Source: a virus. Taken from it: a DNA stretch of 64,000 nucleotides. Numbering within the stretch: the first letter of the stretch is position 1; each line of letters begins with the position of its first letter. Below the pieces are notes generated by a model. That model was given only the letters and a program-made list of their open reading frames with translations. It was not told the DNA's origin and did not search any database. The stretch is taken from the IMG/VR virus record IMGVR_UViG_3300033549_000069, positions 24,828-88,827 of that record; one strand, given 5' to 3'. The translations under genes were made by a program, and so were the position numbers. This document shows positions 3,454 to 60,765 of this stretch, piece after piece.

Positions 3454-3470
3454 GAGGCTTCAGCGATACC

Positions 3471-4020: not shown

Positions 4021-4042
4021 TCAGAGAATTTACCAATCCACC

Positions 4043-4663
4043 TCAGACTGCGTAGTCTGGGTCTCTGTACACGTCCACAAAGTACCGACTCCACGCCGTC
4101 TGCAAGACCGCCGCATTCGGATCCGCGTAGGGCCGGTGGTTGGCGACCTTGGCCGTCATACTCCGCAGCTTCACGTTCCCCAGCCGGTCCACCCGAGGCT
4201 GCCCTGTGCCCGGATCGATCCCCGCCGTGCTCCACAGAAAGATCTTGGCCGCGAACGGGATGACCGTGCGATAGAACGGGCGCGTGACCTCCGACCCCGC
4301 CGTGATCCCGCTCACCGGATAGTAGTTGACCTCCGACGCCCGGTTCAAGAACTCATCCGCGTGGATGAATTGCGTCACAAGAATTGGCGCAATCGGCGTC
4401 TGAATAGTGACATGCACCTGCATCGCATTCGCCGCCGCCACCATCGCGTCCGCCGACATCTGGATCTGGCAGGCCGTGACCACGAACACCTCGCCCGCCA
4501 CCGGCTTCAGCTCCCACGTCGAGTCATAGTCCGTGGGCGGATTCACCCATCCCCCACTCGGCTTCAACTGCCACTCGTCCGGTCGATTCCAGGGGTGCGC
4601 CGATACCGTATCCGTGCGCAACATCTCCACCAGACCCAACTGACTCGCCAGGATCATGCTCAT
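4043..4663 (-). CDS. hypothetical protein
   Basis: ORF track 4043..5017 trimmed to ATG 4663 (MSMILASQ), coupled to the upstream stop. Confidence 0.7.
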   Translation of the reverse strand: MSMILASQLGLVEMLRTDTVSAHPWNRPDEWQLKPSGGWVNPPTDYDSTWELKPVAGEVFVVTACQIQMSADAMVAAANAMQVHVTIQTPIAPILVTQFIHADEFLNRASEVNYYPVSGITAGSEVTRPFYRTVIPFAAKIFLWSTAGIDPGTGQPRVDRLGNVKLRSMTAKVANHRPYADPNAAVLQTAWSRYFVDVYRDPDYAV

Positions 4664-5253
4664 GGGACCACCTTCCAGGAGAACCGCACCACGGTATCCT
4701 CCCACATCGCATTGTTGGTGCCCACCTGGACGGCACAACGCACGCCATCCCGTCGCACCTCCAGTATGACTGGCGGCGAACAGTTCTCCACGGTGATGTC
4801 CGTCAACTCCACGCCCCCCGCAGGCACGACGGCCAGCCGCCGCCCGTAGGACACGAAGAACTCCACCTCTGCCCACCGCTTCATACGGTCGCTGGCCTCG
4901 GACCACACGTACTGTCCATAGGGGTAGTCCACCAGGTAGGGCGATCCGCAGCGCGTGCAGTACACCGGCTGTCCGTCCGAGACCTCCTCGAACCACTGGT
5001 TGCACACCGCACACCACTGCCGGTAGGCCGCATACTGCGACCCCGTCCGCGCCACCAACCGACGCAAGACCACTTCCTGACTCTCCGAAAGCGTCGTGGT
5101 GAACATCACGATAAGGACGCCACTCAACCCCACGTCACAGTTCAACGTTACCCCGATCAGCGTCCCCGCTGTGAACACCGACGAGGCCCGGATCGCTACA
5201 TCCAACGCGCCGACGTCGCACTTGGAGGCCACGCTGTAGCGGTACTCGCCCAT
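4660..5253 (-). CDS. hypothetical protein with CxxC...CxxC zinc ribbon
   Basis: Start MGEYRY at 5253; WCAVCNQW...YCTRCGSP. Confidence 0.7.
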   Translation of the reverse strand: MGEYRYSVASKCDVGALDVAIRASSVFTAGTLIGVTLNCDVGLSGVLIVMFTTTLSESQEVVLRRLVARTGSQYAAYRQWCAVCNQWFEEVSDGQPVYCTRCGSPYLVDYPYGQYVWSEASDRMKRWAEVEFFVSYGRRLAVVPAGGVELTDITVENCSPPVILEVRRDGVRCAVQVGTNNAMWEDTVVRFSWKVVP

Positions 5254-44869: not shown

Positions 44870-45088
44870 CTACCGTCTGCCTCGCGTGCGAGCCCGCATA
44901 CGCGCTTTGGACGCTGCCTGCTCCTCGTTGGACCGACGGCTCGTCTCCAGGTTCTGTTTCTGCTCCACAAACCGCTTGCGGCGGCTGAAGGGCATCGCCA
45001 TCACACTGTCATACGTGCCGCCCTGTAGCTCCATTAGGAAGAAGACCTCCGCCTCCAAGTGCTCTACGAGGCCGATGGGAAGAAAAAA
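44870..45088 (-). CDS. frameshift extension of the tail assembly chaperone (gpGT-like)
   Basis: Lies in the -1 frame relative to 45064..45876; LEAEVFFLMELQGGTYDSVMAMPFSRRKRFVE; no clear RBS of its own. Confidence 0.7.
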   Translation of the reverse strand, partial: FFLPIGLVEHLEAEVFFLMELQGGTYDSVMAMPFSRRKRFVEQKQNLETSRRSNEEQAASKARMRARTRGRR

Positions 45089-45876
45089 CTGGGCTGCCCC
45101 AGATTCAATTCCGCTTTCCACTCATGCTCACATGAAGGACATGAAAAATCTACATTCGTATCGACGTGTCCCTCATGTTTCTCAAACAGAGAACGTATGT
45201 CGTTTCTATCTCGCGTGGGTAACGCCTTGAGCAACGCCATGGCCCCAACAATGTCCTTCTCCCGGTTGATCGGCACACCATTGATTTCGTCCACGCGAGC
45301 CATGATGCCCAACGTCAACACGTCATCCTTGGACTTCTTCGTCTTGGTGGTCAGCCACTCTTCGTCCGTGCTCGACATGATGTGCCAACTCACCACCCTT
45401 CCCGACTTCAGCGTATGCACAAACACCCGCTGCGTAGGATCTTCCATGGCATGAATCTCCACGTCCGCAAGATTCAGAGCATATCGAACCTCTTCTCGAC
45501 AGTCTGGGTTCGGACACTGCACCTTCACGTCGTAGAAATCCCCGAGCGATACCCGCCGGATAGCCAGGAACGCCACCATGCGATCACTCGCGGTCAGACC
45601 ATTTACAGCCGCACCAATCTGAGATCGGTCCTCAAATCCACCAATGCGACGCGTGCAATTCATGATGATCTGATTCAGACGTGGCAGGATAGGCCCCTTC
45701 CCAGCCAACAAGTCCTCCTCGTAACCAGTCATCTCCCCAACCACGAGATCACGATGCACCATGCCAGAAGAATCCAGATATCCACACGGCAACTCCACAG
45801 CGAGCATGCCCGCTGACACATCCATGAGATGCCCCTTCGTCTTCGCCAGAGTCGTTGTCTCCTCAGTCATCTCCAT
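45064..45876 (-). CDS. tail assembly chaperone / T4 baseplate-hub-assembly-like protein
   Basis: VELPCGY..S.G.VHR...GEMTG.EED.L, CPNPDC and CPSC; upstream of tape measure; alternative start 45870. Confidence 0.75.
   Translation of the reverse strand: MEMTEETTTLAKTKGHLMDVSAGMLAVELPCGYLDSSGMVHRDLVVGEMTGYEEDLLAGKGPILPRLNQIIMNCTRRIGGFEDRSQIGAAVNGLTASDRMVAFLAIRRVSLGDFYDVKVQCPNPDCREEVRYALNLADVEIHAMEDPTQRVFVHTLKSGRVVSWHIMSSTDEEWLTTKTKKSKDDVLTLGIMARVDEINGVPINREKDIVGAMALLKALPTRDRNDIRSLFEKHEGHVDTNVDFSCPSCEHEWKAELNLGQPSFFFPSAS
45082..45088 (-). other. -1 slippery heptamer T TTT TTC
   Basis: In-frame AGT TTT TTC near the 3' end of the chaperone gene. Confidence 0.75.
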
Positions 45877-47045: not shown

Positions 47046-47339
47046 ATGGCACGACTCATCCCCGTGACCGGCGAAGCCACATGGATCACCCCAAACAAAG
47101 GTGCCTCGTTCGACCTGGACGAGCTGCAATCATTGGTGGGCGGCTACATCGAATTCGTCACGCTGGATCAAGAGGGACTCATCCTCTGCATCAACGAGGA
47201 AGGCAAGCTGCACGGATTGCCACCCAACCTGCTGGCCACCGCCTACGTCGCCCCCTACCTGCGGGAAGGCGACTACATCGCCGGGCCGGCGATCCTGCTC
47301 ACGCGAAAGGAATCCGGTGACGATGACGACGACGCCTGA
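47046..47339 (+). CDS. DUF3846-like protein
   Basis: LDELQSLVGGYIE......LCINEEGKL.GLPPN..AT.....IAGPAIL. Confidence 0.75.
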   Translation: MARLIPVTGEATWITPNKGASFDLDELQSLVGGYIEFVTLDQEGLILCINEEGKLHGLPPNLLATAYVAPYLREGDYIAGPAILLTRKESGDDDDDA

Positions 47340-47340
47340 T

Positions 47341-47356
47341 ACGAACCTGGGTTCGT
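47341..47356. repeat. palindromic motif, copy 9 (16-bp core)
   Basis: acgaacctgggttcgt after the stop of the + strand operon. Confidence 0.8.
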
Positions 47357-47396
47357 CCCCTTTTCCAGCATATTTATCCGGTCGGTTCTGGACGAC

Positions 47397-47447
47397 CTCG
47401 GGATTTTGCATATCGCCCAAGGAATATCCAATAACTATTCCGTTTTC
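47397..47447 (-). promoter_or_regulatory. conserved intergenic element, copy 2
   Basis: 26-bp exact match to 3428-3453; TTGGAT 47431-47426, N17, CAAAAT 47408-47403. Confidence 0.5.
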
Positions 47448-47485
47448 ATGGGAGTCTTTTCTCCAAAAAAGCGCAAACGCAGTTG

Positions 47486-47514
47486 TTGACAAACAAAATG
47501 TGAGCGGTTAAATT
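47486..47514 (+). promoter_or_regulatory. sigma70-type promoter P2
   Basis: TTGACA-N17-TAAATT; shares gTTGACAAAC and TAAATT with P1. Confidence 0.75.
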
Positions 47515-47567
47515 GAGAGACAGGCAAGATGCCGAGCGCGGATGCTCGGTCGCACAAGGAGGCTCAT

Positions 47568-48029
47568 ATGGACAACGCCAGTATCATCGCCATCAGTAAG
47601 GCCGTCAAAGACAAGGACGCCAAAGACGCCCGCTCCGCCCTCACCCCGGGCGAACATCTCGTGGACGTCACCGTCCACATCTCCGGCTCCCTTGAGATCG
47701 GTCCTGACACCGAGAAGACCTCCACTTCGAGCCTTCTCTCCGAAGAGTTCCTCATCATCGCGCTCAAGATGAGCGGATGCACCCGCGAACGCGCCTGCGA
47801 GATCATCTCCGACCTCGCCAAGCAGTCCGTCAACGGCGACGCCAAGGTCAACAAGACCAATCGCCAGGCGCTCGTCGAAGAGTACGACCCTCAAGGTCGC
47901 ATCTCTGCCATCTTCGCGGATGTCAAGAACAGCCTGCCCAAGACGAAAGTCTCTGGCGCTGCCAAGTTCAAAGGGGAAGTGGTCGAAGTCACCGCCGCCG
48001 CCGCCGACGCTGCCCTCCAGACCGCCTAG
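47568..48029 (+). CDS. hypothetical early protein
   Basis: AAGGAGG RBS, start MDNASII at 47568. Confidence 0.75.
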   Translation: MDNASIIAISKAVKDKDAKDARSALTPGEHLVDVTVHISGSLEIGPDTEKTSTSSLLSEEFLIIALKMSGCTRERACEIISDLAKQSVNGDAKVNKTNRQALVEEYDPQGRISAIFADVKNSLPKTKVSGAAKFKGEVVEVTAAAADAALQTA

Positions 48030-48041: not shown

Positions 48042-48371
48042 CTACAGCTCCACGGCGGGCCTCGGGGGGTGCTCGCGCTCCTCCCGGGCCAGGCCGCGCA
48101 AGGCAGCCTTCACGTTGCTCGACCCGCTCACCTTACCGCCGAGCTTTTGCAGGGTGTGTACGACGATGGGGTACAGCGCTAGGCGCAGCTCTGCCACAAG
48201 CGCGTTCACGTCGCCGTCCTTGCCGATGACCGCCTGTGCCTTTGGCGACACCTGCGACCCCGACAGCATGGCGTCGATCAAGCGCTCCACTTCAGCGCGC
48301 CCGGATCGAAACTCCGGCGCTGCCTCTTCCAAAGCACGCCGCACTTCATGAGCCAACCTGCGTAACGTCAT
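48042..48371 (-). CDS. leader-family protein (candidate internal head protein)
   Basis: Start MTLRRLAHEVRRALEEA with GGAGG RBS. Confidence 0.7.
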   Translation of the reverse strand: MTLRRLAHEVRRALEEAAPEFRSGRAEVERLIDAMLSGSQVSPKAQAVIGKDGDVNALVAELRLALYPIVVHTLQKLGGKVSGSSNVKAALRGLAREEREHPPRPAVEL

Positions 48372-48387
48372 GCTTGCCTCCAGGCGT

Positions 48388-48723
48388 CTACTCAACGCCG
48401 ATGTCGCCCCGTGCTGCGCTCTTCATTTCCCTGCCTGCCTTGGCCAACACGCCACCGGAAACCTCCACGCCGGCGACGTCCAGGGCCTTCGCAATCAGAG
48501 CCCGCAAGGGCTCCAACATCAACCCATGGAACATCTCCAACTGGTCCGTGTCGAAGATGCGCCCCGTCAGCGGGTCCAGCTTCGGGCTGTTCAACATGGC
48601 CTTCGCCATGCGGTCTATCAGCCCCGCGTTCACTGCCTCGCCCATCGGTTCGCCGCCGCTCGACAGCTCAACCTCGCGCATGATCTTCCGCATGGTGTTC
48701 ATCTTGGAAATTTTCGCGTTCAT
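48388..48723 (-). CDS. leader-family-like protein
   Basis: MNAKISKMNTMRKIMREVE. Confidence 0.7.
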   Translation of the reverse strand: MNAKISKMNTMRKIMREVELSSGGEPMGEAVNAGLIDRMAKAMLNSPKLDPLTGRIFDTDQLEMFHGLMLEPLRALIAKALDVAGVEVSGGVLAKAGREMKSAARGDIGVE

Positions 48724-48732
48724 CAGATTCTC

Positions 48733-48888
48733 CTATGGCCCGCCTGTGGCTGGGACCGCCGGCAACGGCGCATTGGTGCTCATGGATATCGGCAACGGCA
48801 CAATACCCGACGTGCGAGACCGCCGCAAATCAACCGAAGATTTTCGACCCTTCCTCGTGCTCTGGATCTTCTTTACCTCGACAATCAT
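48733..48888 (-). CDS. 51-aa basic hypothetical protein (not in ORF track)
   Basis: MIVEVKKIQSTRKGRKSSVDLRRSRTSG...; ATGA overlap with the upstream stop. Confidence 0.55.
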   Translation of the reverse strand: MIVEVKKIQSTRKGRKSSVDLRRSRTSGIVPLPISMSTNAPLPAVPATGGP

Positions 48889-49220
48889 CGCGTCTCCCGT
48901 GGCCGCAGCTCCAACACGGCCCCCCGCTCGGTGCGGGTCACCTCGGCATTCCCAATATCTTCCGCCATGCCAAACCGCTTGGCAAGCTGCTGCGCCACAG
49001 ACATCGCATGCCGCCCCTCGATCCGCATAACCAACGAAATCCCACGCGGCCTCTCCACCGCCTCAAACCGATAGCGCGTCACAAGCCGACCTCGTACCGC
49101 ACGCTCCCCCTGAGTCCGCAACGACCGCATTATCCGCTCGTCAGCCTCAGACAGCACAACCCTTCGGGGAGCCGGAGGCAAATCGTCGAGCAAAGCACGC
49201 AATCGGTCGCTTGAATTCAT
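48885..49220 (-). CDS. hypothetical protein
   Basis: 111-aa ORF in operon. Confidence 0.65.
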   Translation of the reverse strand: MNSSDRLRALLDDLPPAPRRVVLSEADERIMRSLRTQGERAVRGRLVTRYRFEAVERPRGISLVMRIEGRHAMSVAQQLAKRFGMAEDIGNAEVTRTERGAVLELRPRETR

Positions 49221-49235
49221 CCTCCACGCATCCCT

Positions 49236-49580
49236 TCAGAGATCGTATGTGGCCACCAACGATGGCTTCCCGTAACGCTCCTTCAACTCCCAGGCGCTCT
49301 TCGTGTGCTGCTTCAACCAGGTCATGGCCTGCCGCAACGTCTCATCCTTCTCGCGCTCCCCAGGCGCGTCCAGATTCACATAGATCTCCACCGTATCAAG
49401 CGCGGTTCTCGACACTCCAACACCGCCCAAGAAGCGCACCTTCCCGCCGATCTCCCGGTTCAAGGCCCGCCCCAACTGGCTCGCCCACTCCTCCATCTCA
49501 CCCCATGACTTCCGAAAATCCGCAACCACTGGCTCCCCGGCATTGGCCCTCGCCTCAAACAGCTTCAGCATGGTTTCCAT
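49236..49580 (-). CDS. leader-family protein, paralog of 51270..51674
   Basis: METMLKLFEA leader; C-terminal LVATYDL. Confidence 0.7.
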   Translation of the reverse strand: METMLKLFEARANAGEPVVADFRKSWGEMEEWASQLGRALNREIGGKVRFLGGVGVSRTALDTVEIYVNLDAPGEREKDETLRQAMTWLKQHTKSAWELKERYGKPSLVATYDL

Positions 49581-49591
49581 GTGCGACCCTT

Positions 49592-50260
49592 TCATACGAT
49601 CAACTGCTCTAGTAGGTAGCGGCCGTCTGCATGGCTGGCGAAATCAGAATGCGCCACAACGCCCGGTCCCGGCTTCGCGTACCACCCCAATGGAGGAGCC
49701 TTCCAGCCAGAGATCTTGGGTGTCTTCGCGTTAAAGTTCTTCGTCGGAAACACATATGGAATCTTCATCAATTCGCACAGCCAAGGAACCAGCGCTTGAA
49801 TGCACGCCACCTGGATTCCAAGCGGTGCCTGGTAGGTCCGCGCATGACCAGGCGGAACCCACGTCCACCAATTCGCCGGCAACACAGGACCGCACGGCTT
49901 CCTTGCGAATTCCGGTCTGTAGGCGTTCACAACCTCGATCCCAACAGAGGTGGAGTTGAGCTGGTTTCCGTGAAAACAAATGTCCAACGCCAAGTCCGCG
50001 TGACACGACAGCAGACCGTCCTTGCCCAAGATCAGATGCACGCCGAGCTTCTTCTCACGCAACGTGTCCTTGCACCCCGTCGCGCTGTTCCCAGCCGTCT
50101 CGTGAAGCACAAGATGCGAAACCTTCGCCGTGCGCGGCTTGTTGCGCAAGCAGGGCTCCTCATCGTCGATGTAGTTGGTGCCACGCACGCCCAGGTCCAA
50201 CACCGCTTTGGGCAGCGACACCTTCTCACCATTCACGATCAAGCTGTTCGAGGGCTGCAT
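49592..50260 (-). CDS. N-acetylmuramoyl-L-alanine amidase (type 2), probable endolysin
   Basis: LVLHETA...GVHL.LG.DG...H......FHG...NS.SVGIE...VVAHSD Zn-amidase motifs; start MQPSNS with GGAGG. Confidence 0.85.
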   Translation of the reverse strand: MQPSNSLIVNGEKVSLPKAVLDLGVRGTNYIDDEEPCLRNKPRTAKVSHLVLHETAGNSATGCKDTLREKKLGVHLILGKDGLLSCHADLALDICFHGNQLNSTSVGIEVVNAYRPEFARKPCGPVLPANWWTWVPPGHARTYQAPLGIQVACIQALVPWLCELMKIPYVFPTKNFNAKTPKISGWKAPPLGWYAKPGPGVVAHSDFASHADGRYLLEQLIV

Positions 50261-50302
50261 GGGGCCTCCTGTCTGCCTACCGTCGTTCACCGCCATCCAT
50301 CA

Positions 50303-50332
50303 TCACCGTCCGTGCGCCGCCGCCGCGTTTTT
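50303..50332 (-). repeat. cassette repeat R4 (KNAAAAHGR*)
   Basis: Degenerate copy of the 3' end of 51684..52298. Confidence 0.7.
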
Positions 50333-50359
50333 ATCCAATTTCATGACATATTCAAAAGT

Positions 50360-50695
50360 TCACTTCTTTGCTCTTTTTCTTGATCCCTTCTTTGCATCAT
50401 TTATAAGAGTCTGCAAAACCATTATAGACAAATATGTTGCAATCTGCTCATCAACATCGGAATCACTCAACCCGTGCTGTTCTGCCTTTTCCTTCACTTG
50501 ATCTATAAGTCGAGCAGCTTCTTTCTCCCATGTGCCTCTTTCGTCGCGCAGTAACCAATCTTTTCCTTCAATGCTTTGCATCTGTTCCGCTGCCATCTTC
50601 ACAATTCTTCTTGGTCGGCCATGATCTCCTCCGAGAGATTGGGCCTCCATTATCTTCTGCATTCCCTCAATCAGACTCTTCATGCTCCGTGCCAT
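50360..50695 (-). CDS. AT-rich leader-family protein
   Basis: MARSMKSLIEGMQKIMEA; flanked by R3 and R4. Confidence 0.75.
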   Translation of the reverse strand: MARSMKSLIEGMQKIMEAQSLGGDHGRPRRIVKMAAEQMQSIEGKDWLLRDERGTWEKEAARLIDQVKEKAEQHGLSDSDVDEQIATYLSIMVLQTLINDAKKGSRKRAKK

Positions 50696-50707
50696 CGCTT
50701 ACCTCTT

Positions 50708-50737
50708 TTACTTGTGCGCAGCCGAAGCCGCGTTCTT
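50708..50737 (-). repeat. cassette repeat R3 (KNAASAAHK*)
   Basis: 23/24 identity to R1 over 50714-50737. Confidence 0.85.
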
Positions 50738-51188
50738 AAATTTCCTTACCCTGAAAACGGAACTTCTGCTCCCATGCTACTTTCCCTGAAGCATCCATAA
50801 TTCTATTGATTCCGAGCTTTTTCAGCTTCTCCATATCTCCGATGTACCATTTCCCATCAAAGACACTCATGCCGTAAAATGCCTGTTTCTCTTTTGCGAA
50901 TTCCTTCGCCATTTCTTCATTGCCAACCTTGACCATGGACTCCATCTGGAGTCTCTCAAACAACTGGCGCATCCCATTCGATGCCAGTTGTTCGGACTGC
51001 TCAACTGGGCTCACTTCCACATGCCAACCAATGGTGGCGCCATGCACGCCCCACTTTTTCATCGCTTTCCCGATGGCGTGCTTCTTCGCATCTTTCCCAG
51101 GATTCGTCTTCACGACACCCAAAAGCTTCTTAACCCCTTCATCCGGGATCACCTGATACGCATTCCAGGACTGTAGCTCTATTCCCAT
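50736..51188 (-). CDS. AT-rich protein with an internal leader-like motif
   Basis: Internal MRQLFERLQMES at about residue 73; flanked by R2 and R3. Confidence 0.75.
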   Translation of the reverse strand: MGIELQSWNAYQVIPDEGVKKLLGVVKTNPGKDAKKHAIGKAMKKWGVHGATIGWHVEVSPVEQSEQLASNGMRQLFERLQMESMVKVGNEEMAKEFAKEKQAFYGMSVFDGKWYIGDMEKLKKLGINRIMDASGKVAWEQKFRFQGKEI

Positions 51189-51208
51189 GACGCTCTCCTT
51201 TTCATCTA

Positions 51209-51256
51209 CCGTGAGCAGCCGAAGCCGCGTTCTTGCCCGCCGTTGTCAGACTCAAC
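51209..51256 (-). repeat. cassette repeat R2 (LSLTTAGKNAASAAHGR*)
   Basis: 45/48 identity to R1 (51694-51741). Confidence 0.9.
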
Positions 51257-51269
51257 AGCATCTAAAGCT

Positions 51270-51674
51270 TCAGAAATCATAGGTGGCAACAAGCGCAAAC
51301 TTTCGGTTCCGCTTTGCCTTCACCCATGTGCTATTCGTTAAATTCTGTAACCTGACCAACGCCATATCAAATACATCTTCTTCATCCAGCGTGCCAAGCA
51401 TATGAAAACTCAATACCACCTCCACAGCATCACCCACTCCCTTGGCTACACCAATACTTCCCACGATCTTGACGCCATCTCCAATACTCTTAGTCAACCG
51501 CTTCCCGATGTCATCCGCCCACACGGACAACCCACTCCAAGCGTTCCGTATCGACGTTGCATACGGTTCATTCGGATTCGTCATAGACTCTCCCAATAAT
51601 CTAATCGTTCCAATGCCTGCAACGTCATCGGATGCTGCCTTCAACTGCTCAGCCAGCTTGCGCATCGTGGACAT
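51270..51674 (-). CDS. AT-rich leader-family protein, paralog of 49236..49580
   Basis: MSTMRKLAE...LLGES; flanked by R1 and R2. Confidence 0.75.
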   Translation of the reverse strand: MSTMRKLAEQLKAASDDVAGIGTIRLLGESMTNPNEPYATSIRNAWSGLSVWADDIGKRLTKSIGDGVKIVGSIGVAKGVGDAVEVVLSFHMLGTLDEEDVFDMALVRLQNLTNSTWVKAKRNRKFALVATYDF

Positions 51675-51683
51675 TCGTCTCTC

Positions 51684-52298
51684 CTAACGTCGTCCGTGAG
51701 CAGCCGAAGCCGCGTTCTTGCCCGCCGTCGTCAAGCTCAACGCCCCTGCCTTGTTCCGTGCAATCCATCCACGCTCGACCAGCGCGTCCACCTCGCCCGG
51801 CTGCACCTTCATGTCCGCGAACAGCTCCTTGCGATAGCTCGACGTCATCGCCATGCTCCGCAGGATGCCCGCCTCACGATCCGTCATCTCCACGGCCCCC
51901 GGCAGCAACGGCACCACGCTGTCGGGATGCACGTAGATCGTCGCGTAGGTGCCCCGCCCGCCACTCGACCCCACGATGGCCACGCCGTCCCGAGGCAGCG
52001 GATGCTCGCCACGATCCTGGTCGATAGAGGGCTTCCCCACCGGGCTGTACCCGCCCCAGTCGCCCTGCACCGTCTTGGTCGCGCCCGTGGCCAGGTTCAC
52101 CAGCACCGCGAAGCCCCGCTCCCCGTCCCCCGCGTAGGGGTTCAGGCTGACCAGCGCCTGCGGCACCACCGCGATGTCCCGGCTCCGGTAGCCCACGTCC
52201 TTCAACGCCTTGCGCAGCACGTCCGGCAGCTCCTTCACGAGCACCTCCGTGCCACGGGCCTCCATGATCCGCTCCACTCGCTCGATCAAGTGCCTCAT
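51684..52298 (-). CDS. leader-family protein whose 3' end is repeat R1
   Basis: MRHLIERVERIMEA; ends ALSLTTAGKNAASAAHGRR. Confidence 0.8.
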   Translation of the reverse strand: MRHLIERVERIMEARGTEVLVKELPDVLRKALKDVGYRSRDIAVVPQALVSLNPYAGDGERGFAVLVNLATGATKTVQGDWGGYSPVGKPSIDQDRGEHPLPRDGVAIVGSSGGRGTYATIYVHPDSVVPLLPGAVEMTDREAGILRSMAMTSSYRKELFADMKVQPGEVDALVERGWIARNKAGALSLTTAGKNAASAAHGRR

Positions 52299-52711
52299 CC
52301 GATCCTCCCAATGGCTTTCTTCAAACGATCCACCTGCCCCCGTAGACGCTCATAACTCTCCACCACAGCAGATGGATCCGATGCCGTGGTTCCAGCCTTT
52401 CGCACCCTCATCCACGCCGACTCGAACGCCTTGTAAGCGGCATCCATGTCGGTAGCTATGTCCTCAATTTCGTGGGCAAGCTCGTCGTTCCCAACGTCCA
52501 GGAGACCGGAAAAGACTCGGTCGGCGATCCGCCGGGCATTGCGATAGACGTCCTCCGCCGTGTTCCTGTCCTCAAGCGCAATCTCGTTGGATCGAACACG
52601 CGGGATCGCACGAATTTCCATAGAAAACTCCGCTATCTGCCTGATGGCGACATTCGCACTGCGGGCCTCCATGATCCGTTCAAACCGCTCGATCAAGGTT
52701 CTCATCGTCAT
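52295..52711 (-). CDS. leader-family helical protein
   Basis: MTMRTLIERFERIMEA; leader DNA 37/44 identical to that of 51684..52298. Confidence 0.8.
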   Translation of the reverse strand: MTMRTLIERFERIMEARSANVAIRQIAEFSMEIRAIPRVRSNEIALEDRNTAEDVYRNARRIADRVFSGLLDVGNDELAHEIEDIATDMDAAYKAFESAWMRVRKAGTTASDPSAVVESYERLRGQVDRLKKAIGRIG

Positions 52712-52726
52712 GGCTCTCTCCTATCC

Positions 52727-53305
52727 CTACTTGCCATGCAGGTCATTGTAGCTCTTCCAGTTCAACTGCGGCGACTTCTCCGACATCGTGACCTTCATCG
52801 GCCCGAACTTGCCCGTCACCATCACGGACTTCTGCGAGACTTTGGTCACCGTCTGGTAGCTGCCCGAGAGCACCACCCACACGACATCGCCCACCTTCAC
52901 CTGGTCGGCCCGCGTAATGGCGTTCTCCCGGCCGCGCTCCTTGGCCTGCGCCGCTGCCGCATCCTTCTCCGCTGCCTGCTGCGCCAGGAAGATCGCCATG
53001 TCGGCGTCAGGATGCACGTCCGCGTCCTTGCGCTGGAACTTCCCCTCGGCAAACGCCTTCAACACCGCCTGCCGCCACTTATCCTTCGCCGCCGCCGACG
53101 CCTCCCACTCCCCCGCCCGCTTCTTGTCGTACTGCGCCTTGGCACTCTTGCTCATGTGCGCGTACTGCATCGGGCTGATCTCAGCGACCCAGGGCTCATG
53201 GACGTTCAAGGCCGCCTGATACGCCGACGCCCCCACCGTCCAGGGACGATCCAAGATCCACTCCCTCCCCTCGACCGCCTCGAACAGGGATCGCATGGTC
53301 GTCAT
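52727..53305 (-). CDS. leader-family protein with a C-terminal SH3/KOW-like barrel
   Basis: MTTMRSLFEA; ADQVKVGDVVWV......VTKVSQKSV. Confidence 0.75.
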   Translation of the reverse strand: MTTMRSLFEAVEGREWILDRPWTVGASAYQAALNVHEPWVAEISPMQYAHMSKSAKAQYDKKRAGEWEASAAAKDKWRQAVLKAFAEGKFQRKDADVHPDADMAIFLAQQAAEKDAAAAQAKERGRENAITRADQVKVGDVVWVVLSGSYQTVTKVSQKSVMVTGKFGPMKVTMSEKSPQLNWKSYNDLHGK

Positions 53306-54102
53306 CTGCCAAATGCCTCGGCGAAGAGATTCACGACATTCTGTGCCGTAACCATCCCTGCCCGCATCCGAACATCGCGTTCCACGCGCTGTAGGCCATC
53401 AGCCGCTTTCCAGCTCGCGTTGATCAGAACCTCGTGACCATCCCCTGTTCCCGTAACTAAACTCCCCTGCCACTCCAGATCGAAATCACTGCGATTCTGC
53501 CCCTTGTACTCCACCCAGACAGTGTTGCGCGAGCGCTCCACATTGACGGACTCGGCATGGCCACCCGCCAATTTCTTGATGCCCGCCGCCACCTCTTTAC
53601 AGAACATCTCCAAGGCATCGCCCTCGAAGTCGGCCCAGGTACGTCCCGATCCGCTGGCCTCGTCGATCCGTGCTTCGGACAGGCCCCTGTGGCCACAGAC
53701 CACTCGAACGTCCTCGTAAATAGATACCGCTTTTTTAGGAAATTCTATTTGGTAGTAAACATAGTTATCAACATCGTCATGTCGCCACACCCATATTTTA
53801 TTTTCACTTCCAATCGTCCTGACTAAAACAGCTTCGATGTCATCCTCAAGATCATACGCCTCTCCAGGATATTTTTTCCATGGAACACCAAAGACAAAAC
53901 GCACGTTCATTGGAGGAGAATGTATTCCAACCTTCCAGTCATGCAGCCCGCGTCCCATCTTTTTCAAAACAAACTTGTTCAACGCCGACTTGACATCATC
54001 TACACTAACGCCTTCGGACAGGCTCCTGTGGCCACGTCCCGCTGCCACGTCGCCCTCGACCAGCGCCCTCATGTCCTTCACCAATGTTCGCATCGTTGCC
54101 AT
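53302..54102 (-). CDS. leader-family two-domain polyprotein-like protein
   Basis: MATMRTLVKDMRALVEG; GHRSLSE...GHRGLSE direct repeats flank an AT-rich 113-codon module. Confidence 0.8.
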   Translation of the reverse strand: MATMRTLVKDMRALVEGDVAAGRGHRSLSEGVSVDDVKSALNKFVLKKMGRGLHDWKVGIHSPPMNVRFVFGVPWKKYPGEAYDLEDDIEAVLVRTIGSENKIWVWRHDDVDNYVYYQIEFPKKAVSIYEDVRVVCGHRGLSEARIDEASGSGRTWADFEGDALEMFCKEVAAGIKKLAGGHAESVNVERSRNTVWVEYKGQNRSDFDLEWQGSLVTGTGDGHEVLINASWKAADGLQRVERDVRMRAGMVTAQNVVNLFAEAFGR

Positions 54103-54112
54103 GGCTCACTCC

Positions 54113-54550
54113 TTATCGCGCTACGTCGCTCACGCTCCGGCGCACCTTGGGAAACATCATGTTCATCGACCGCAACGGGACCGATCCCGCTGCCGTCCAG
54201 CCCACCGCCGTCAGGATCATCTCTACCGCTGCGAGGTCCGCGTCCTCGGCCTCCACCACCACCCCCACGTCCGCCGTCTTCACGTACCAGAACCCAAAGC
54301 CCATCCGCGACCACCGCACATGCACGTCCGCCGCCTCCGCCGGATCGTTCGGCACGATGACCACCACGCGCACCTCCCCCACCGGGCGCTTGTTCGCCCC
54401 CAGGAGCGGCGCCCACAGGCGAGCCGTAGCACGAGCAGCCCCCTGGCTCGGGCGCGGCTGTGGGGCCTCACGGGCCGTCAGGCGACGCTCCAGCAGCATC
54501 GCCCGCACGCGATCCAGGATGCCCGCCGCGACCTGTGCCCGTTCATCCAT
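54113..54550 (-). CDS. hypothetical protein (leader-like RAMLLE)
   Basis: 145-aa ORF with AGG RBS in operon. Confidence 0.65.
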   Translation of the reverse strand: MDERAQVAAGILDRVRAMLLERRLTAREAPQPRPSQGAARATARLWAPLLGANKRPVGEVRVVVIVPNDPAEAADVHVRWSRMGFGFWYVKTADVGVVVEAEDADLAAVEMILTAVGWTAAGSVPLRSMNMMFPKVRRSVSDVAR

Positions 54551-54558
54551 CAGTGACC

Positions 54559-55152
54559 CTACCTCCGCTGGGCCATCCAGGCCCGCGACGTCGTGAGCAA
54601 CTGGTCAGCCGCCTTCTGCAAGCTGTGCAAAGCCGCATCCCGCTGTTTCCAGTTCTTCTTCTTCTCCTGGTCCTGTGCCAGCTCGAAATCATCGACAACA
54701 GCGATCACCCACCGGCCAATGTCCGACATCGTCCCGCTGGTGGAGGCTTCCTGGTCCTTGGCATACGCCTCGACGTGCTTCCGCACCCAGGCGTTTTTGC
54801 CAAACACGGACGCCACGACGCGCTTCACGTCCGCCATCTTGGGATTGAACACCCGGCCATACGCAGCCGTATCCGGGGTCGGCAACGTGTCCTTCAATTC
54901 CGCCGCCACCAGATCGCCAAAGTTCATCCCGCTCTTCGAGTCCAGGTAGTTACGGATCGCCGCCGACGATACGTCTGGCATCTCGGACATGATCAGGCGA
55001 AATGTCTCCGCCCAGATCGCGTCCGCGTTTTCAAACCGGAACTCGATCCGTCCGAAGTACCCGTAGTCCCGCTGCTCGGTCGGCAAGATCTGGCCCTGCC
55101 GCTTCATGGTCGCCTCGGTCAACAGGCCGGATAGTCGTCGCATCGTCGTCAT
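54559..55152 (-). CDS. leader-family protein
   Basis: MTTMRRLSGLLTEA. Confidence 0.8.
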   Translation of the reverse strand: MTTMRRLSGLLTEATMKRQGQILPTEQRDYGYFGRIEFRFENADAIWAETFRLIMSEMPDVSSAAIRNYLDSKSGMNFGDLVAAELKDTLPTPDTAAYGRVFNPKMADVKRVVASVFGKNAWVRKHVEAYAKDQEASTSGTMSDIGRWVIAVVDDFELAQDQEKKKNWKQRDAALHSLQKAADQLLTTSRAWMAQRR

Positions 55153-55187
55153 GGCATCCTCCAGGCGAACCCAGGTTCGCGTCTATG
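55140..55187 (-). repeat. cassette repeat P1, containing palindrome copy 10 (55163-55182), RBS and ATGACGACGATG
   Basis: 44/48 identity to 55735-55782. Confidence 0.9.
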
Positions 55188-55291
55188 TTCCTTACTGGTC
55201 AGAAGCGATCCTAGTCATGCTTATATCCTTTGAGGAATTGATATTCCATGTCATGGCTTTCCTCCAAGTGATTACAGATCGTTTCAACAAA

Positions 55292-55747
55292 TCACCTGAC
55301 TGAAAAATCAGATAATTTCATCGCAAACAAATCACTATCTTCAGTACGGTCCAAGACTCCTTTCACCTCATCAACCACGCGTCCAATGATCACTTTCCCA
55401 CGCGCATTCCGCTTTTCATGTTTCTTGCCCTGTTCAGAATAAGTCTTCCCGGTGTCATCAAGTAACTGCGCAAGCAATTCGATCCTGTCATCATTAATCG
55501 TAAAACTGATTTCTGCCCACCGCCCATCGACAATATCCGTCGAGAACTGCACATCCCACTGGTTTGATGATGCGTCATATCCAGCAAGGTTGAGTGTCTT
55601 GGAGAAGTCCAATGCCACACTGGGTAATTTCCACTTCCGCGCCAGATCCGTTGCCAATCGCAGCAGAACACCACTGACAAGAGATTTTTTAGTATTTCCT
55701 TTGCCCAGCAAAACCAACCCCTCGATCAGTGTCCGCATCGTTGTCAT
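55292..55747 (-). CDS. AT-rich leader-family protein
   Basis: MTTMRTLIEG; flanked by P1 and P2. Confidence 0.75.
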   Translation of the reverse strand: MTTMRTLIEGLVLLGKGNTKKSLVSGVLLRLATDLARKWKLPSVALDFSKTLNLAGYDASSNQWDVQFSTDIVDGRWAEISFTINDDRIELLAQLLDDTGKTYSEQGKKHEKRNARGKVIIGRVVDEVKGVLDRTEDSDLFAMKLSDFSVR

Positions 55748-55782
55748 GTCATCCTCCGGGCGAACTCAGGTTCGCGTCTATG
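55735..55782 (-). repeat. cassette repeat P2, containing palindrome copy 11 (55758-55777)
   Basis: 44/48 identity to 55140-55187. Confidence 0.9.
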
Positions 55783-56506
55783 CTTCAGCCTGCACATAGG
55801 CAAACACGTCTTCCATCTTCGGCTTGCGCTTCCGCGTCTTCTTCACCGGCTCCGCTCCCTGTGGAGGCGGCGCAACCGACTTCTTGCCCTTGCCCGCCTT
55901 CGGCTTGGCCTTCGCCTTCTCCCCGCCGGATCGCGCCCCCGCCTTCTGCGCCTGCGCCGTGGCATAGGCGTGGCTCTCGCCGCCCTTGACGTGCTTCTTG
56001 TAGGTGTCCTGGGACGCCTTCCACGCCGCGTCCCCCGCCTTGCGGCCCTTGGTGTCCGCCACCTTCTTCGCCGCCGCATGGGCCTTCTTGCCCGCGTCCG
56101 TGAACCGATACGCCGCGCCCTGCACCGCCCGCTTGGCCGCCACGCCCTTCTGGACCGCCTTCTGCGCCCCCGCCACGGCCTTCTTGGCCGCGCCCCCCAC
56201 CACCTTGCCGCCCTTCACGATCTTGCCGAATACCATCTTCGCGCCCGGCGGCAACTTGCTCGCAATCTGCGTCTTCTTCTTGGCCATCCAGCTCCGAAAC
56301 CCCTCCAGCATATCGTCCTGGTCTTCGGATAGCGCCCCCGCCTCCGCCGCACCAATGAGCTGGGCCATGATCGCCAGACGCTCCACATCTTCCTCGTCGA
56401 ACACCTCGTCCAGAAGATCGTCGTCTGCTGCCAGGATCGCCTCGAAGAACTCCGCCTCATCCTGGGCAGTCTCCATGCTCTCAAACAGATCGTTCATGGT
56501 CGTCAT
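55778..56506 (-). CDS. leader-family protein with an acidic pro-region and a Lys/Ala-rich histone H1-like body
   Basis: MTTMNDLFES, ~65 aa D/E-rich segment, then AKKAVAGAQKAVQKG...KAKAKPKAGKGKK. Confidence 0.8.
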   Translation of the reverse strand: MTTMNDLFESMETAQDEAEFFEAILAADDDLLDEVFDEEDVERLAIMAQLIGAAEAGALSEDQDDMLEGFRSWMAKKKTQIASKLPPGAKMVFGKIVKGGKVVGGAAKKAVAGAQKAVQKGVAAKRAVQGAAYRFTDAGKKAHAAAKKVADTKGRKAGDAAWKASQDTYKKHVKGGESHAYATAQAQKAGARSGGEKAKAKPKAGKGKKSVAPPPQGAEPVKKTRKRKPKMEDVFAYVQAEA

Positions 56507-56518
56507 GGCAGTGCTCCT

Positions 56519-58051
56519 TCAGTCCAACATGCTGTAGGCGTGATAGTCCAGATCCGCTGCCGACATCGCCCGCAACAGCTCCCGGAACGTCATGCCCTTG
56601 ATCTCCGCTTGGTGCGACCCCACCCACGCATAGAACCGCGCAATCGCAGTCTTCTTCGCGCCGCCTACCGGCGGAATCACCGCCGTCACGTCCTGGCCGT
56701 CCGTCCCCGGCCGGGGCTTCTCCATCACGTCGAATTCCGTGCGCGACGCCTTCAGCGTGAACGTCGGCGTCTCGACCTGGATCGCGGACCCCGCCGCCGG
56801 TGCCATCGGCTCCACATCGACCCCGCGAAGATCGCGCTCCTCAATGCTCGCAAACGACATCCCGCGCTGTGAATCCTTCGCCGCTACCCCACGGGCAATG
56901 GCCACCGCCTGCGCATAGGTCTTCGCCTTCACGATGGCCTTCAACGCCTCGTTGATCTTCGCCACGTCCTTGGGATCGCGCTGGCCGTAGTCCAGGTTGA
57001 ACAGGGCGAACTCGGGGCACTTCTTGCCGCGCTTCCCCGCATTGGTGACGTCCGTCACGCGCAGGCTGGAATTGAAGCGGTGCATGCGCAGGTTGTCCCG
57101 CTCGATGGTCTGCCCCACTGCCAACCCCGCCTGCTGGTCAACGTAGAGCATCTCCTCGGCCTCGGGCAGCGCCGCTCGCCCCTCCCGCGCCACGTCCTCT
57201 TCCCGCACCTTGGACAGCGCCTTGAAGGCTGCCTCGTGCGCTCTGTACCCATCCTTGGTCAGCCGCTCGAATGCCGCCTCGACCTGCTTCCACCAACCGG
57301 CTACAGCCTGCCCCGCCGCTGCCGCCGACTTGAACTCCTTGCCGTCGAACATCGCCTCCCAGGTGGGCAGTCCCTTGCGGTCTACGCGCCACGCCTTCCC
57401 CGCATCGTCCTCCTGAATGATGCGCAGCGGCACGTCAACTGACCCCAACTTGAAGGTCCGCCCGTAGGCCGTCCGCTTGCCATTCGGGCTCGGGTGCTCG
57501 TCCCAGCCCTTGAGGTACAGCGCCTGGGCCTGCTTGTGCATGTCAAACGCCATCTCTTCGCCCATCGCCGCTGCCCCGCCCGGATCCACCATGTCCTTGC
57601 GTGCCCGTATCGCCGTCGAAAACTTGGGCGCGAAGTCCTTGGTCAGCGTCCCCTCCCGCGTCTTGTCCATGACCTTTTCCGCTATCGCGGTCGCGGCCCG
57701 CAACGCCTCCCGGTTCTCCTTGCGCTTCGGATCGCGGAGCAAGTCGACCTTGTGCGCATACGGCTTCGTGCTCAGCTTGGCCATCTCCGGCACGCCGCTG
57801 ATCAACTGCCAGTCGCCCTTGGGATTCTTCCACAGCGTCACAGCACCGCCGGTCTTCCCATCGACCCACACCACCCACTCGTCGGCCTTCGACGAATACT
57901 CAATCTCGTACCCAGCCTGCTCCATCATGACGGAAAGGAGATTGACGATGCGCCTGGCTTCTTCCGCCGCCGCCTTCTCGCCCTTGCCCTCGTATTGAAT
58001 CTCTCTCGCGGAAGCCATCAGATGGTTGAGTCTCTTAATCAGTCGTCTCAT
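56519..58051 (-). CDS. large multi-domain leader-like protein
   Basis: MRRLIKRL start with GAGGAGG RBS; C-terminal LRVTDVTNAGKRGK domain; function not recognised. Confidence 0.75.
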   Translation of the reverse strand: MRRLIKRLNHLMASAREIQYEGKGEKAAAEEARRIVNLLSVMMEQAGYEIEYSSKADEWVVWVDGKTGGAVTLWKNPKGDWQLISGVPEMAKLSTKPYAHKVDLLRDPKRKENREALRAATAIAEKVMDKTREGTLTKDFAPKFSTAIRARKDMVDPGGAAAMGEEMAFDMHKQAQALYLKGWDEHPSPNGKRTAYGRTFKLGSVDVPLRIIQEDDAGKAWRVDRKGLPTWEAMFDGKEFKSAAAAGQAVAGWWKQVEAAFERLTKDGYRAHEAAFKALSKVREEDVAREGRAALPEAEEMLYVDQQAGLAVGQTIERDNLRMHRFNSSLRVTDVTNAGKRGKKCPEFALFNLDYGQRDPKDVAKINEALKAIVKAKTYAQAVAIARGVAAKDSQRGMSFASIEERDLRGVDVEPMAPAAGSAIQVETPTFTLKASRTEFDVMEKPRPGTDGQDVTAVIPPVGGAKKTAIARFYAWVGSHQAEIKGMTFRELLRAMSAADLDYHAYSMLD

Positions 58052-58053
58052 CA

Positions 58054-58094
58054 CGTCCTCCTCATGTCACGCTCAGCAGGGCGAATTCCGTCAC
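58054..58094 (-). repeat. T3: orphan copy of the tail tube 3' end (TEFALLSVT*) plus RBS
   Basis: 29/32 identity to 58566-58597. Confidence 0.85.
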
Positions 58095-58134
58095 GGACGA
58101 ACACTCAGTCCTGCGGATAATCAGCGTCCTTGCT

Positions 58135-58563
58135 TTACTTCCTCTGAGTTGAGACAATCCGAACGCCATGAATCAAGAGATTACCACTTCCTTTTATGTC
58201 TATCGCTGCGTTCCAAGGGAACGCCCGTTTTGTCCAATTACTTAATTTCTCAAAATACTCGTCATATGCGCCAGTATTAGGTTTCAGTGCCTCGGGTGGC
58301 GCGACCACCTCGATTTCCATACTAAGCATATTCCCATTCGGAGAAATATCGACATTCACATCCAACCCCCGTAGTCCCATGATGGCATCCAACTCCAGCA
58401 AGATCTCGTGCTCTACTTTGCGTATGAGACCATTCAGTTCTGAATGATTCTTCTCAATCTGCTTGAACATGTCAGGAACCTTGGACTTACCCATGGCACC
58501 ACTGGCCTCATCCATCTCTATCGACCCAATAACGTCCTGAATCTGTTCGATCAACTTCCTCAT
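58135..58563 (-). CDS. AT-rich leader-family protein
   Basis: MRKLIEQIQ...MDEA; flanked by T2 and T3. Confidence 0.75.
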   Translation of the reverse strand: MRKLIEQIQDVIGSIEMDEASGAMGKSKVPDMFKQIEKNHSELNGLIRKVEHEILLELDAIMGLRGLDVNVDISPNGNMLSMEIEVVAPPEALKPNTGAYDEYFEKLSNWTKRAFPWNAAIDIKGSGNLLIHGVRIVSTQRK

Positions 58564-58573
58564 CGCGTCCTCC

Positions 58574-59587
58574 TCACGTCACGCTCAGGAGCGCGAATAG
58601 CCCATGCTTACGCTCACTGCGCATTGTCTCGATACTATCACCCCACAACCACTGGCCCCACAAGCGAGCACGATCTCCATACAGAACAACGGTGTGTCTA
58701 TCCGCATGCGTTTTCTTACGTGCCTTGCCATGCTGAACCTTCGGCCGCCGACCAGCGATCTGCGCCATCCGATCTGCAATGGACTCAATGATCGATTTCG
58801 CTGCAAGCCCAATCCCGATGACAGGCTTCATCGGATCACGCCCCACCCATCCATCCGCATCGAACAGACCGCGCAAAAAATGTGTCTCCAATTCGACTGG
58901 CAGAGACCTCGGCCACACCAGCGTGCGCGCCTTAGCAGGCGTCACCCCCCACCGTGCGATGTTCCGTGCCAACCGCATGCTTCCGATCTCTGCAATGAAA
59001 CATCCGCCTTTTTTATTGACCGGATGCTCACTGCCAAGAATCGCCAACACCTTGCACACGACATCCTCATCCCCACACACACCTACGCCATGCTCCACAC
59101 CATTGGCCCGAGCAATCCACCCGTTTCCGTAAATGACCCCCAGCGCCCATGCCCGTGGAACGTCTAGCTCCCCATCGAAGGCCGCCTCGTTGACCGCGTA
59201 CTGGCGCATACGCTGCGAAGTCGCATCCGCTGCCAATATCGCCGCCTCTTTCCGAGTACGTAGGATGCCCGCACGCTCTATGACGCCCATCACAAAGCCA
59301 ACCGGAACACCCATTTCTTTGGCAATAGCCGTCGTCCCCATCCCGTCGCAATACAGCGCCTCGGCCTGCTCACATACCGCTCTCCCACGGAATCGTCCAA
59401 GCCCTCGCTCCACCGCCAACGCATGCGATGCCGCATGACTCCTCATGCGCATCCCAGAAGCAGTTACCCAGTTGCTAACGGACTGCACCGAGGCACTCAT
59501 ACGAGTTGCCACCGCTCCCAAGGATTCCCCGCCAACGTATGCGGCTACCGCTTCCATCCGTTCCTGCTCACTAAATCTCTTTCCCAT
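58574..59587 (-). mobile_element. free-standing double-motif LAGLIDADG homing endonuclease with N-terminal HTH repeats
   Basis: Start MGKRFS at 59587 (GGAGG); VNEAAFD...WALGVIYGNG and HFLRGLFDADGWV; ends FALLSVT like the tail tube. Confidence 0.85.
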
Positions 59588-59622: not shown

Positions 59623-60186
59623 TTACGTAACAGACAAGAGACAAAACTCGGTCATCGCGTGAGCTTGCACATCGAGTTCCATGATGCTCACATCCCCCGT
59701 CATCGCGTCCAGGTCCGTGCCCGCCTTGTAGCGGATCGGTATTGCGTCCCACAACAACCAAGCTCGGCCCGGCAGGAACTGCGCGACCTCCCACGCCTCG
59801 ATGGCCACGGGCAGGTCCACGCTCACCCCCAGGGCGTTCGCCACGTTGATGTTCGTGTACTGCAACAGCAGCAGGTTGCGCGGCACCATGTCGTACCCAC
59901 GAATCGCCCGCTCTACCCACATCATGAACGTGTCGTCATACGCCCTCGCACCGCGCGTCAGCGTGATCTGCCCAACACTCCCGCCGCTGTAGGCGTACCG
60001 CTTGTACATTGAGTTGACCTGCTTGATCTCGTCCACCTCAAGCGTCACCTCCGGCATCGTGATCGACTGGAATCCCATGATAGGGGCTCCCATCACGTAG
60101 AACGGAAACGTCGAGGAAGGGATCATGTCTACCAGCCAAAAGCGGTAGGACTGAAGCAGATCTTCCAATGGATGGCGACTCGGCAT
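59623..60186 (-). CDS. tail tube protein 2 (T4 gp19-like)
   Basis: GFQSITMPEVTLEVDEIKQ...VGQITLTRG...F..W...P..YK.GTDLDA..GDV.I.EL. Confidence 0.85.
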   Translation of the reverse strand: MPSRHPLEDLLQSYRFWLVDMIPSSTFPFYVMGAPIMGFQSITMPEVTLEVDEIKQVNSMYKRYAYSGGSVGQITLTRGARAYDDTFMMWVERAIRGYDMVPRNLLLLQYTNINVANALGVSVDLPVAIEAWEVAQFLPGRAWLLWDAIPIRYKAGTDLDAMTGDVSIMELDVQAHAMTEFCLLSVT

Positions 60187-60225: not shown

Positions 60226-60765
60226 CTATTTGGTCAGCAGTTCGAAGCTCTCCAACGCGAAGTCCACCTCGGCCAGCGATACCTCGCCGGACATCGAATC
60301 GAAATCCGCCGCCGGCTTGGCTCTGGTCGGAGCGCAGTTGTGGCAAAGCACCCGCCGCATGTCGGTACTGGTCGCCGACTTCGATGCGCTGCCCATCTCC
60401 GCCCTCTGGTAATGCCAGATCGTGACGTCCATGCGGTACTCGACGCCCGTCACTGCCCCGTAAACCCAGTCGAAGAACGCGGTGTCCTTCTTGGCGATGC
60501 CGCGCATCAGCGTGCAGTCGCTCACGGTCGGGGGGCCAGGGTACTTCTGCGTCCAGGTGAAGGTGCCCTCGCGGTACTCCACCGGCTCCAACGACAGCTC
60601 GGGCAAGGTCACGCTCTGGAACCCTGCCTCTGCCCCGCCCTCGAACGGCTCGCCGCCTTCCGCGCCACGGATGAACCCAGGCTGGAGAAGATCCTTGCCA
60701 TCGCGGTTCTTGCCACGGACGTGGAATCGGAATCCCTGCATCAGATCGTCTACTGCTGCGCGCAT
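60226..60765 (-). CDS. tail tube protein 1 (T4 gp19-like)
   Basis: AGFQSVTLPELSLEPVEYREG...KYPG.....TLMRG....FFDW...DFDSMSGEV...EV. Confidence 0.9.
   Translation of the reverse strand: MRAAVDDLMQGFRFHVRGKNRDGKDLLQPGFIRGAEGGEPFEGGAEAGFQSVTLPELSLEPVEYREGTFTWTQKYPGPPTVSDCTLMRGIAKKDTAFFDWVYGAVTGVEYRMDVTIWHYQRAEMGSASKSATSTDMRRVLCHNCAPTRAKPAADFDSMSGEVSLAEVDFALESFELLTK

Follow-up and report, generated by a model that had tools for sequence, protein, structure and literature searches.

A short N-terminal peptide that recurs on unrelated proteins of an uncultivated virus is probably a lineage-specific capsid-targeting propeptide of the T4 type, and the two gene islands that carry it would form a greatly expanded, fast-evolving set of cargo genes. 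This leader, or tag, was analysed in a stretch of 64,000 nucleotides (the window), which is part of the 106,219-bp virus record IMGVR_UViG_3300033549_000069 (genome positions 24828-88827), with nearly all genes on the minus strand. We favour this reading because the features of the leader match those of the T4 system point by point, and each sequence-level prediction of it that was checked held. The tagged proteins would most likely be loaded into the capsid and delivered together with the DNA.

A position matrix was made from the leaders and then refined on six related genomes, with a cut-off of 12 bits. The core of the leader is M-R-x-L-I-E-x-L, mostly followed by hydrophobic-x-Glu and Ala, Gly or Ser. 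N-terminal scores of at least 12 bits were obtained for 18 genes of the present record (G000), and shuffled N-termini reached this value in 8 of 27,720 trials (0.03%), or about 0.4 expected per 1386 genes. With a simple regular expression, 17-18 of 137 genes matched at the N-terminus where the internal rate predicts 0.3-0.5, which amounts to an N-terminal enrichment of about 60-fold (Poisson P about 1e-21 to 1e-24). With 18 N-terminal and about six internal copies, about 24 of the roughly 135 genes of the record are tagged, every one of them in two islands, designated A (within the window) and B (outside it). The array of about 14 leader proteins described by a first-pass annotation of the window is real, and it is larger than described: it comprises about 24 genes, is split between two islands and recurs across a clade. 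All 14 of its open reading frames (ORFs) were recovered on the minus strand with the coordinates and N-termini listed below; 11 leaders are robust (13-29 bits), three are degenerate (at 49236, 48388 and 48042, with 3.5, 10.0 and -2.6 bits), and an internal copy at residue 73 of the ORF at 50736-51188 had been overlooked. As that annotation had also stated, the sheath, tube, baseplate and fibre genes lack the leader; so do the portal and capsid genes of the record, and the motif, rather than being equally common among non-island genes, is confined to the two islands.

The leader is conserved as a peptide and not as DNA. Among 25 copies, Arg2 is encoded by all six of its codons and Leu4 by four. 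Mean pairwise DNA identity is 0.31 for the 33 nt upstream and 0.52 for the 33-nt leader itself, within which codon position 2 is best conserved (0.64, compared with 0.45 for positions 1 and 3). A DNA-level repeat as the origin of the shared start was rejected because of this codon evidence.

The end of the leader resembles a protease site. Across the six genomes, 79 of 81 N-terminal leaders contain hydrophobic-x-Glu within 19 residues of the start, the hydrophobic residue standing two positions ahead of the Glu, and the tag is 6-19 residues long; the residue following the Glu is Ala in 34 leaders, Ser in 8 and Gly in 7. The pattern [LIMFV]xE[AGS] is present in 64% of leaders, compared with 8% of other proteins. 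The genome also encodes a T4 head module in T4 gene order, consisting of Portal_T4, Peptidase_S77 and Gp23 capsid protein genes, with two unassigned proteins where T4 has genes 67 and 68; a long acidic run in one of the two resembles that of T4 gp67. The Peptidase_S77 protein (541 aa; L003:11212-12837; PF03420, E=2e-18; phrog_207, E=7e-48) matches the solved structure of T4 gp21 (PDB 5JBL) and retains the catalytic His (ELDHP) and Ser (GVSSRG) in alignment with T4, while its last ~350 residues form a charged, helical, scaffold-like extension. With a slash marking the putative cut, the protease begins MPQLLIE/T, and T4 gp21 begins MNEPQLLIE/T. The capsid propeptide sites [IL][ML]E/N and [LF]xE/D are conserved in the six genomes, both lying 20-31 residues ahead of a conserved RRxFPNLIA block, and the protease-scaffold protein contains eight [LIM]xE[AGS] sites, compared with 1.7 expected. 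The first-pass annotation had suggested checking whether capsid and scaffold propeptides use the same site as the leader, and hydrophobic-x-Glu was found in the capsid propeptide, at the protease N-terminus and, with an excess of about 5-fold, in the scaffold part.

In T4, internal head proteins enter the prohead core by means of a capsid-targeting sequence of 10-20 residues, which gp21 removes by cutting after Glu and which suffices to package foreign proteins (PMC5694885, PMC3012670; the sequence is that of Mullaney & Black 1996, as these two papers relate it). T-even internal proteins have the leader alone in common, are encoded at a genomic hotspot and each block a specific GmrSD nuclease (PMC12373910, PMC9391042), the three of T4 each inhibiting a different one (PMC12373910). 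The present system resembles this arrangement in its homologous head machinery, whose genes follow one another as in T4 (gp20, core proteins, gp21, gp23), in a short N-terminal tag common to otherwise unrelated proteins, in a tag end of hydrophobic-x-Glu followed mostly by Ala, in an almost identical protease N-terminus (QLLIE/T), and in the location of the tagged genes in hypervariable loci. The shape of the leader also agrees with the T4 tags taken from NC_000866, namely those of gp67 (MEGLIE/A), gp24 (MAKINELLRE/S), Alt (MELITELFDE/D) and IPII/III (MKTYQEFIAE/A). The principle is thus textbook for T4; what is new here is the sequence of the tag, while the head machinery is homologous, and the term "non-T4" that the first-pass annotation applied to the addressing system was therefore incorrect, only the leader consensus being different (MRxLIExL... 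here, MKTYQEFIAE in T4). Unlike T4, which has three internal proteins plus Alt (about ten are known across the T-evens), this phage has about 24 tagged genes in 106 kb, arranged in two islands within the structural gene block; a single fused protein provides protease and scaffold, some tags are internal to ORFs, and the cargo, known here from sequence alone, has no homology to Ip1-3 or Alt. In the literature searched, a large tagged array outside the T-evens was not reported.

No sequenced phage was matched by Megablast, and the identity of the capsid protein to any in the collection does not exceed 31%. In IMG/VR, however, the phage, whose habitat is wetland and sediment, belongs to a clade with five related uncultivated genomes of 157-195 kb, which carry 5-20 tagged genes each:

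G006: 169 kb, capsid protein 99% identical, 20 tagged N-termini.
G001: 161 kb, capsid protein 75% identical, 9 tagged N-termini.
G002: 195 kb, capsid protein 63-66% identical, 12 tagged N-termini.
G003: 176 kb, capsid protein 63-66% identical, 17 tagged N-termini.
G004: 157 kb, capsid protein 63-66% identical, 5 tagged N-termini.

Terminal repeats are present in G002, G003 and G004, all three of which are rated complete, so the present record is probably about two thirds of a genome of about 170 kb. In six of six genomes, an island is situated between the tail-tube genes and the tape-measure gene. The peptide is retained over genomes of 51-66% guanine-cytosine (GC) content and down to 63% capsid-protein identity, reading M[RK]xLIE[KRQ] in the lower-GC genomes. 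An exact degenerate-DNA scan of IMG/VR for MRxLI[ER]RLEEA found two other contigs only, this pattern being too strict to gauge spread.

Although the structural proteins of the present record and G006 are 98-100% identical, whole tagged genes have been gained or lost in both islands. Cassettes specific to the present record are AT-rich (46-49% GC in a 59% GC genome), which points to recent import from lower-GC relatives. Repeats occur at the junctions between some neighbouring genes, one of 68 nt at 81% identity that includes a palindrome, ribosome-binding site (RBS) and start, one of 40 nt at 90% and one of 48 nt at 94%; they resemble traces of the duplication and exchange of cassettes. Such repeats, together with the gene shuffling by promoter-stem-loop cassettes that is described for hyperplastic regions of T4-type phages (PMC2839356), would allow the common start to be a by-product of recombination at shared junctions made up of hairpin, RBS and first codons, the peptide itself being functionless. 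The likeness extends to strain-specific insertions and replacements of single genes bounded by short hairpin-bearing repeats, with the differences that the junction here includes the RBS and first tag codons, and that the genes here lie in the late structural block and theirs in early regions. We consider a functionless by-product very unlikely, given that the upstream DNA is not common to most copies (31% identity), that synonymous codons have been free to vary at conserved residues, and that the peptide has outlasted the divergence in base composition and capsid protein described above. The junction repeats more likely account for the exchange of cargo than for the retention of the tag.

A palindrome, CGAAC-N4-GTTCG, probably a regulatory or terminator hairpin, occurs in 11 copies (0.08 expected), at window positions 3474, 6679, 9351, 12685, 22430, 28407, 37845, 44852, 47342, 55166 and 55761. 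In front of two island genes, a copy immediately precedes the RBS and leader start.

Island A contains the following features, with bit scores from the position matrix:

59623-60186 and 60226-60765, minus strand: two tail-tube genes resembling T4 gp19, which bound the island upstream.
58135..58563, minus strand: leader gene, 142 aa, MRKLIEQIQDVIGSIEMDE/A, 23.4 bits; GC 0.46; not in the near-identical phage G006.
56519..58051, minus strand: leader gene, 510 aa, MRRLIKRLNHLMAS, 21.2 bits; mosaic of three modules.
55778..56506, minus strand: leader gene, 242 aa, MTTMNDLFE/S, 19.2 bits; N-terminal third acidic, rest Lys/Ala-rich and basic.
55292..55747, minus strand: leader gene, 151 aa, MTTMRTLIE/G, 18.2 bits; GC 0.47; not in G006.
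54559..55152, minus strand: leader gene, 197 aa, MTTMRRLSGLLTE/A, 15.1 bits.
54113..54550, minus strand: untagged island gene, 145 aa, -11.8 bits; kept in G006.
53302..54102, minus strand: leader gene, 266 aa, MATMRTLVKDMRALVE/G, 13.1 bits.
52727..53305, minus strand: leader gene, 192 aa, MTTMRSLFE/A, 19.7 bits; weak sub-threshold ProQ-C-like match.
52295..52711, minus strand: leader gene, 138 aa, MTMRTLIERFERIME/A, 27.5 bits.
51684..52298, minus strand: leader gene, 204 aa, MRHLIERVERIME/AR, 29.0 bits.
51270..51674, minus strand: leader gene, 134 aa, MSTMRKLAEQLKAAS, 21.9 bits; GC 0.49; G006 has a distant paralog only.
50736..51188, minus strand: ORF of 150 aa with an internal leader, MRQLFERLQME/S, at residue 73, 23.3 bits (internal); GC 0.48; not in G006.
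50360..50695, minus strand: leader gene, 111 aa, MARSMKSLIEGMQKIME/A, 19.6 bits; GC 0.44.
49592..50260, minus strand: N-acetylmuramoyl-L-alanine amidase (Amidase_2), a peptidoglycan hydrolase within the island, untagged and outside the tagged set; probably the endolysin.
49236..49580, minus strand: possible degenerate leader, 114 aa, METMLKLFE/A, 3.5 bits.
48388..48723, minus strand: possible degenerate leader, 111 aa, MNAKISKMNTMRKIMRE/V (starting MNTMRKIMRE), 10.0 bits.
48042..48371, minus strand: possible degenerate leader, 109 aa, MTLRRLAHEVRRALEE/A (leader MTLRRLAHEVRRALEEA), -2.6 bits.
45064..45870, minus strand: T4_baseplate family protein, downstream boundary of the island.
40961-44839: tape-measure-like gene, 1292 aa, after the T4_baseplate gene.

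The gene at 55292..55747 is bounded by the 68-nt repeats, which contain the palindrome, RBS and leader start. Compared with its G006 version (151 aa), the gene at 53302..54102 has an extra 113 codons in frame, with a 40-nt direct repeat on either side (53673-53712; 54012-54051), both repeats coding for an L-S-E site, and this stretch looks like an in-frame domain insertion. The G001 ortholog of the gene at 51684..52298 has a shorter leader with the same E/AR junction at its end; the 204-aa cargo itself, folded without an alignment, gave a pLDDT (predicted local distance difference test) of 50 and was unusable. The 510-aa protein gave no Pfam, PDB-fold or ESM Atlas match. A homolog search returned five proteins only, in which its three modules recur in other combinations, the third once standing directly behind another tag copy; these homologs reveal module shuffling but nothing on function. 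Its predicted fold (8 sequences) had a pLDDT of 58, with the C-terminal module alone confident, and Foldseek against PDB gave no hit at E <= 0.001.

The first tagged gene is bounded by 40-nt repeats (58047-58086 and 58559-58598) that are 90% identical. Between it and the second gp19-like tube gene lies a LAGLIDADG-type homing endonuclease with an N-terminal helix-turn-helix (58574-59587, minus strand), which is missing from G006. At the other end of the island, 47046-48029 on the plus strand holds two genes conserved in G006, one of them DUF3846, which are the sole convincingly coding plus-strand genes near island A.

Island B (genome 12.4-24.4 kb) contributes about 12 further tagged genes, in which the prevailing leader form is MRSLIRRLEE[AGS]. 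The bodies behind the leaders are mostly unrelated, as had been noted for island A. After removal of the leader, the 24 tagged genes of the present record fell into 22 BLAST families, and the 95 tagged genes of the six genomes into 69. Of 93 tagged proteins scanned, 87 had no Pfam match, just five matched a PHROG, all of unknown function, and no Ip1, Ip2, Ip3 or Alt family of Pfam or PHROG was found among them. The single cargo family with a recognisable function carries a zinc metallopeptidase motif. It is represented in island B by a tagged pair of paralogs of 437 and 447 aa (L004:2052-3365 and 3358-4701, minus strand; genome 14052-16701) with an intact HExxH, weak Peptidase_Mx matches and Atlas neighbours of the Peptidase_Mx1/ATLF/M90 kind, which makes them candidate packaged zinc metallopeptidases. 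An untagged S-adenosylmethionine decarboxylase-like gene (AdoMet_dc, E=5e-19) lies in the middle of island B (L004:6053-6649, minus strand; genome 18053-18649).

This diversity bears on the possibility that the tag leads into the prohead, with the tagged proteins being core or scaffold-like assembly parts that are degraded or expelled at maturation. T4 gp67, gp68 and gp22 have similar N-termini and end up cut into small pieces, and several tagged proteins are helical, charged and of low complexity, for example the 242-aa acidic/basic protein. Protection of the cargo from cutting was also not apparent: cut sites in cargo bodies had an observed/expected ratio of 0.83, compared with 1.12 in other proteins, which is suggestive of depletion, but a reversed-motif control behaved alike. 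Essential parts, however, would be expected neither to come and go between phages with structural proteins at 98-100% identity nor to fall into 69 unrelated families, and the tagged set extends to proteins of 437-510 aa, including the intact HExxH peptidase. We therefore regard a set of assembly parts as unlikely.

The placement of island A inside the block of tail genes, where it is flanked by the tube genes and the baseplate-hub/tape-measure genes, raises the question of whether the leader is a helix addressed to a target other than the head, through tail or baseplate loading, a common chaperone or a common host target. Contractile injection systems load cargo via N-terminal signals. The end of the tag, however, shares its site grammar with the capsid propeptide and protease N-terminus, the lumen of a phage tube is normally occupied by the tape measure, and a separate loading factor was not apparent. 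A non-head address is improbable on this evidence, although it is the least improbable of the alternatives considered. One tag on many unrelated bodies is also formally like the recognition sequence of a modifying enzyme with many substrates, as for ribosomally synthesised and post-translationally modified peptides (RiPPs). This explanation is the most remote, as no conserved enzyme gene accompanies the islands; the single match to the radical-SAM family PF04055 lies far from them, and the family is absent in four of five relatives, three of them complete genomes. A radical-SAM/SPASM maturase as the reader of the tag was rejected for this absence.

Several observations weigh against capsid targeting. 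The tag is not homologous to that of T4, MRxLIExLEE sharing with it only M1 and the terminal hydrophobic-x-Glu. In G002-G004, L-I-E is mostly followed by Lys, Arg or Gln and not by a small residue, and no such leader was found in the fragments of the more distant relatives G005 and G010 (~40% capsid-protein identity). Five or six near-perfect tag copies are internal, 73-188 residues into their ORFs, where they follow conserved N-terminal domains, a placement not seen for T4 tags; outside the window, three larger proteins have such copies (residues 88, 105 and 169), again behind N-terminal domains that are conserved in relatives. A predicted complex of the protease domain with a 40-residue leader scored 0.12 under the mark and weighs neither way.

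The internal copies loosely recall the long propeptides of the giant phages phiKZ, 201phi2-1 and SPN3US, in which ejection proteins are processed by a gp21-related protease (PMC5694885, PMC7411985). As proposed here, those phages have many head-internal proteins cut after Glu by a T4-related protease, with propeptides thought to target the prohead. Their propeptides, however, are mostly 80-160 residues long with an A/S/G-x-E site and do not form a common short tag, whereas the tags here are 6-19 residues long, with a hydrophobic residue in place of the A/S/G, and include no propeptide of >80 residues with A/S/G-x-E.

The capsid-targeting reading is consistent with a loading pathway analogous to that of T4. 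In this pathway, the tag would form a short amphipathic helix that docks the newly made protein onto a prohead core built from the gp21-type protease fused to its coiled-coil scaffold. The shell would close around the core, followed by cutting after Glu by the protease, which would take off the tag and degrade the scaffold. The mature cargo would remain inside with the DNA and exit with it at infection. We infer the packaging, cleavage, injection or ejection, and counter-defence steps, the last of these being the weakest: the likeliest use of the cargo would be a role early in infection, in counter-defence or host takeover. More tentatively, and with somewhat less than even confidence, this deep-branching T4-like clade may employ a single tag of 6-19 residues as a general loading address, by which each phage would fill its head with at least 20 diverse, rapidly exchanged proteins, zinc metallopeptidases and multi-module proteins included, with internal copies marking precursors that the protease splits into two products.

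Because proteins injected with phage DNA act ahead of any phage gene expression, they are leading candidates for the disabling of host defences. Should the tag function as in T4, about 24 injected proteins here and about 95, from 69 families, in the six genomes would be marked by it. A catalogue of injected effectors for a whole group of environmental phages could then be predicted from the tag sequence alone, and the tagged set, almost wholly dark matter, would provide a ready list for anti-defence screens. The T4 loading system would also be old and expandable to about a tenth to a fifth of the genes of a phage, and a second, unrelated tag could serve for packaging foreign proteins.

The portal gene (L003:14816-17626, minus strand, outside the window) contains an intein with an HNH endonuclease (Intein_splicing + HNH_3), and the prohead protease gene of G006 (61-62 kb) has an in-frame interruption of ~390 codons following residue 76, which is probably a further intein. 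Beside the capsid gene, a 545-aa ORF (L003:7820-9457, minus strand) has both a Mom-like/GNAT domain and an HNH/endonuclease VII-like C-terminus.

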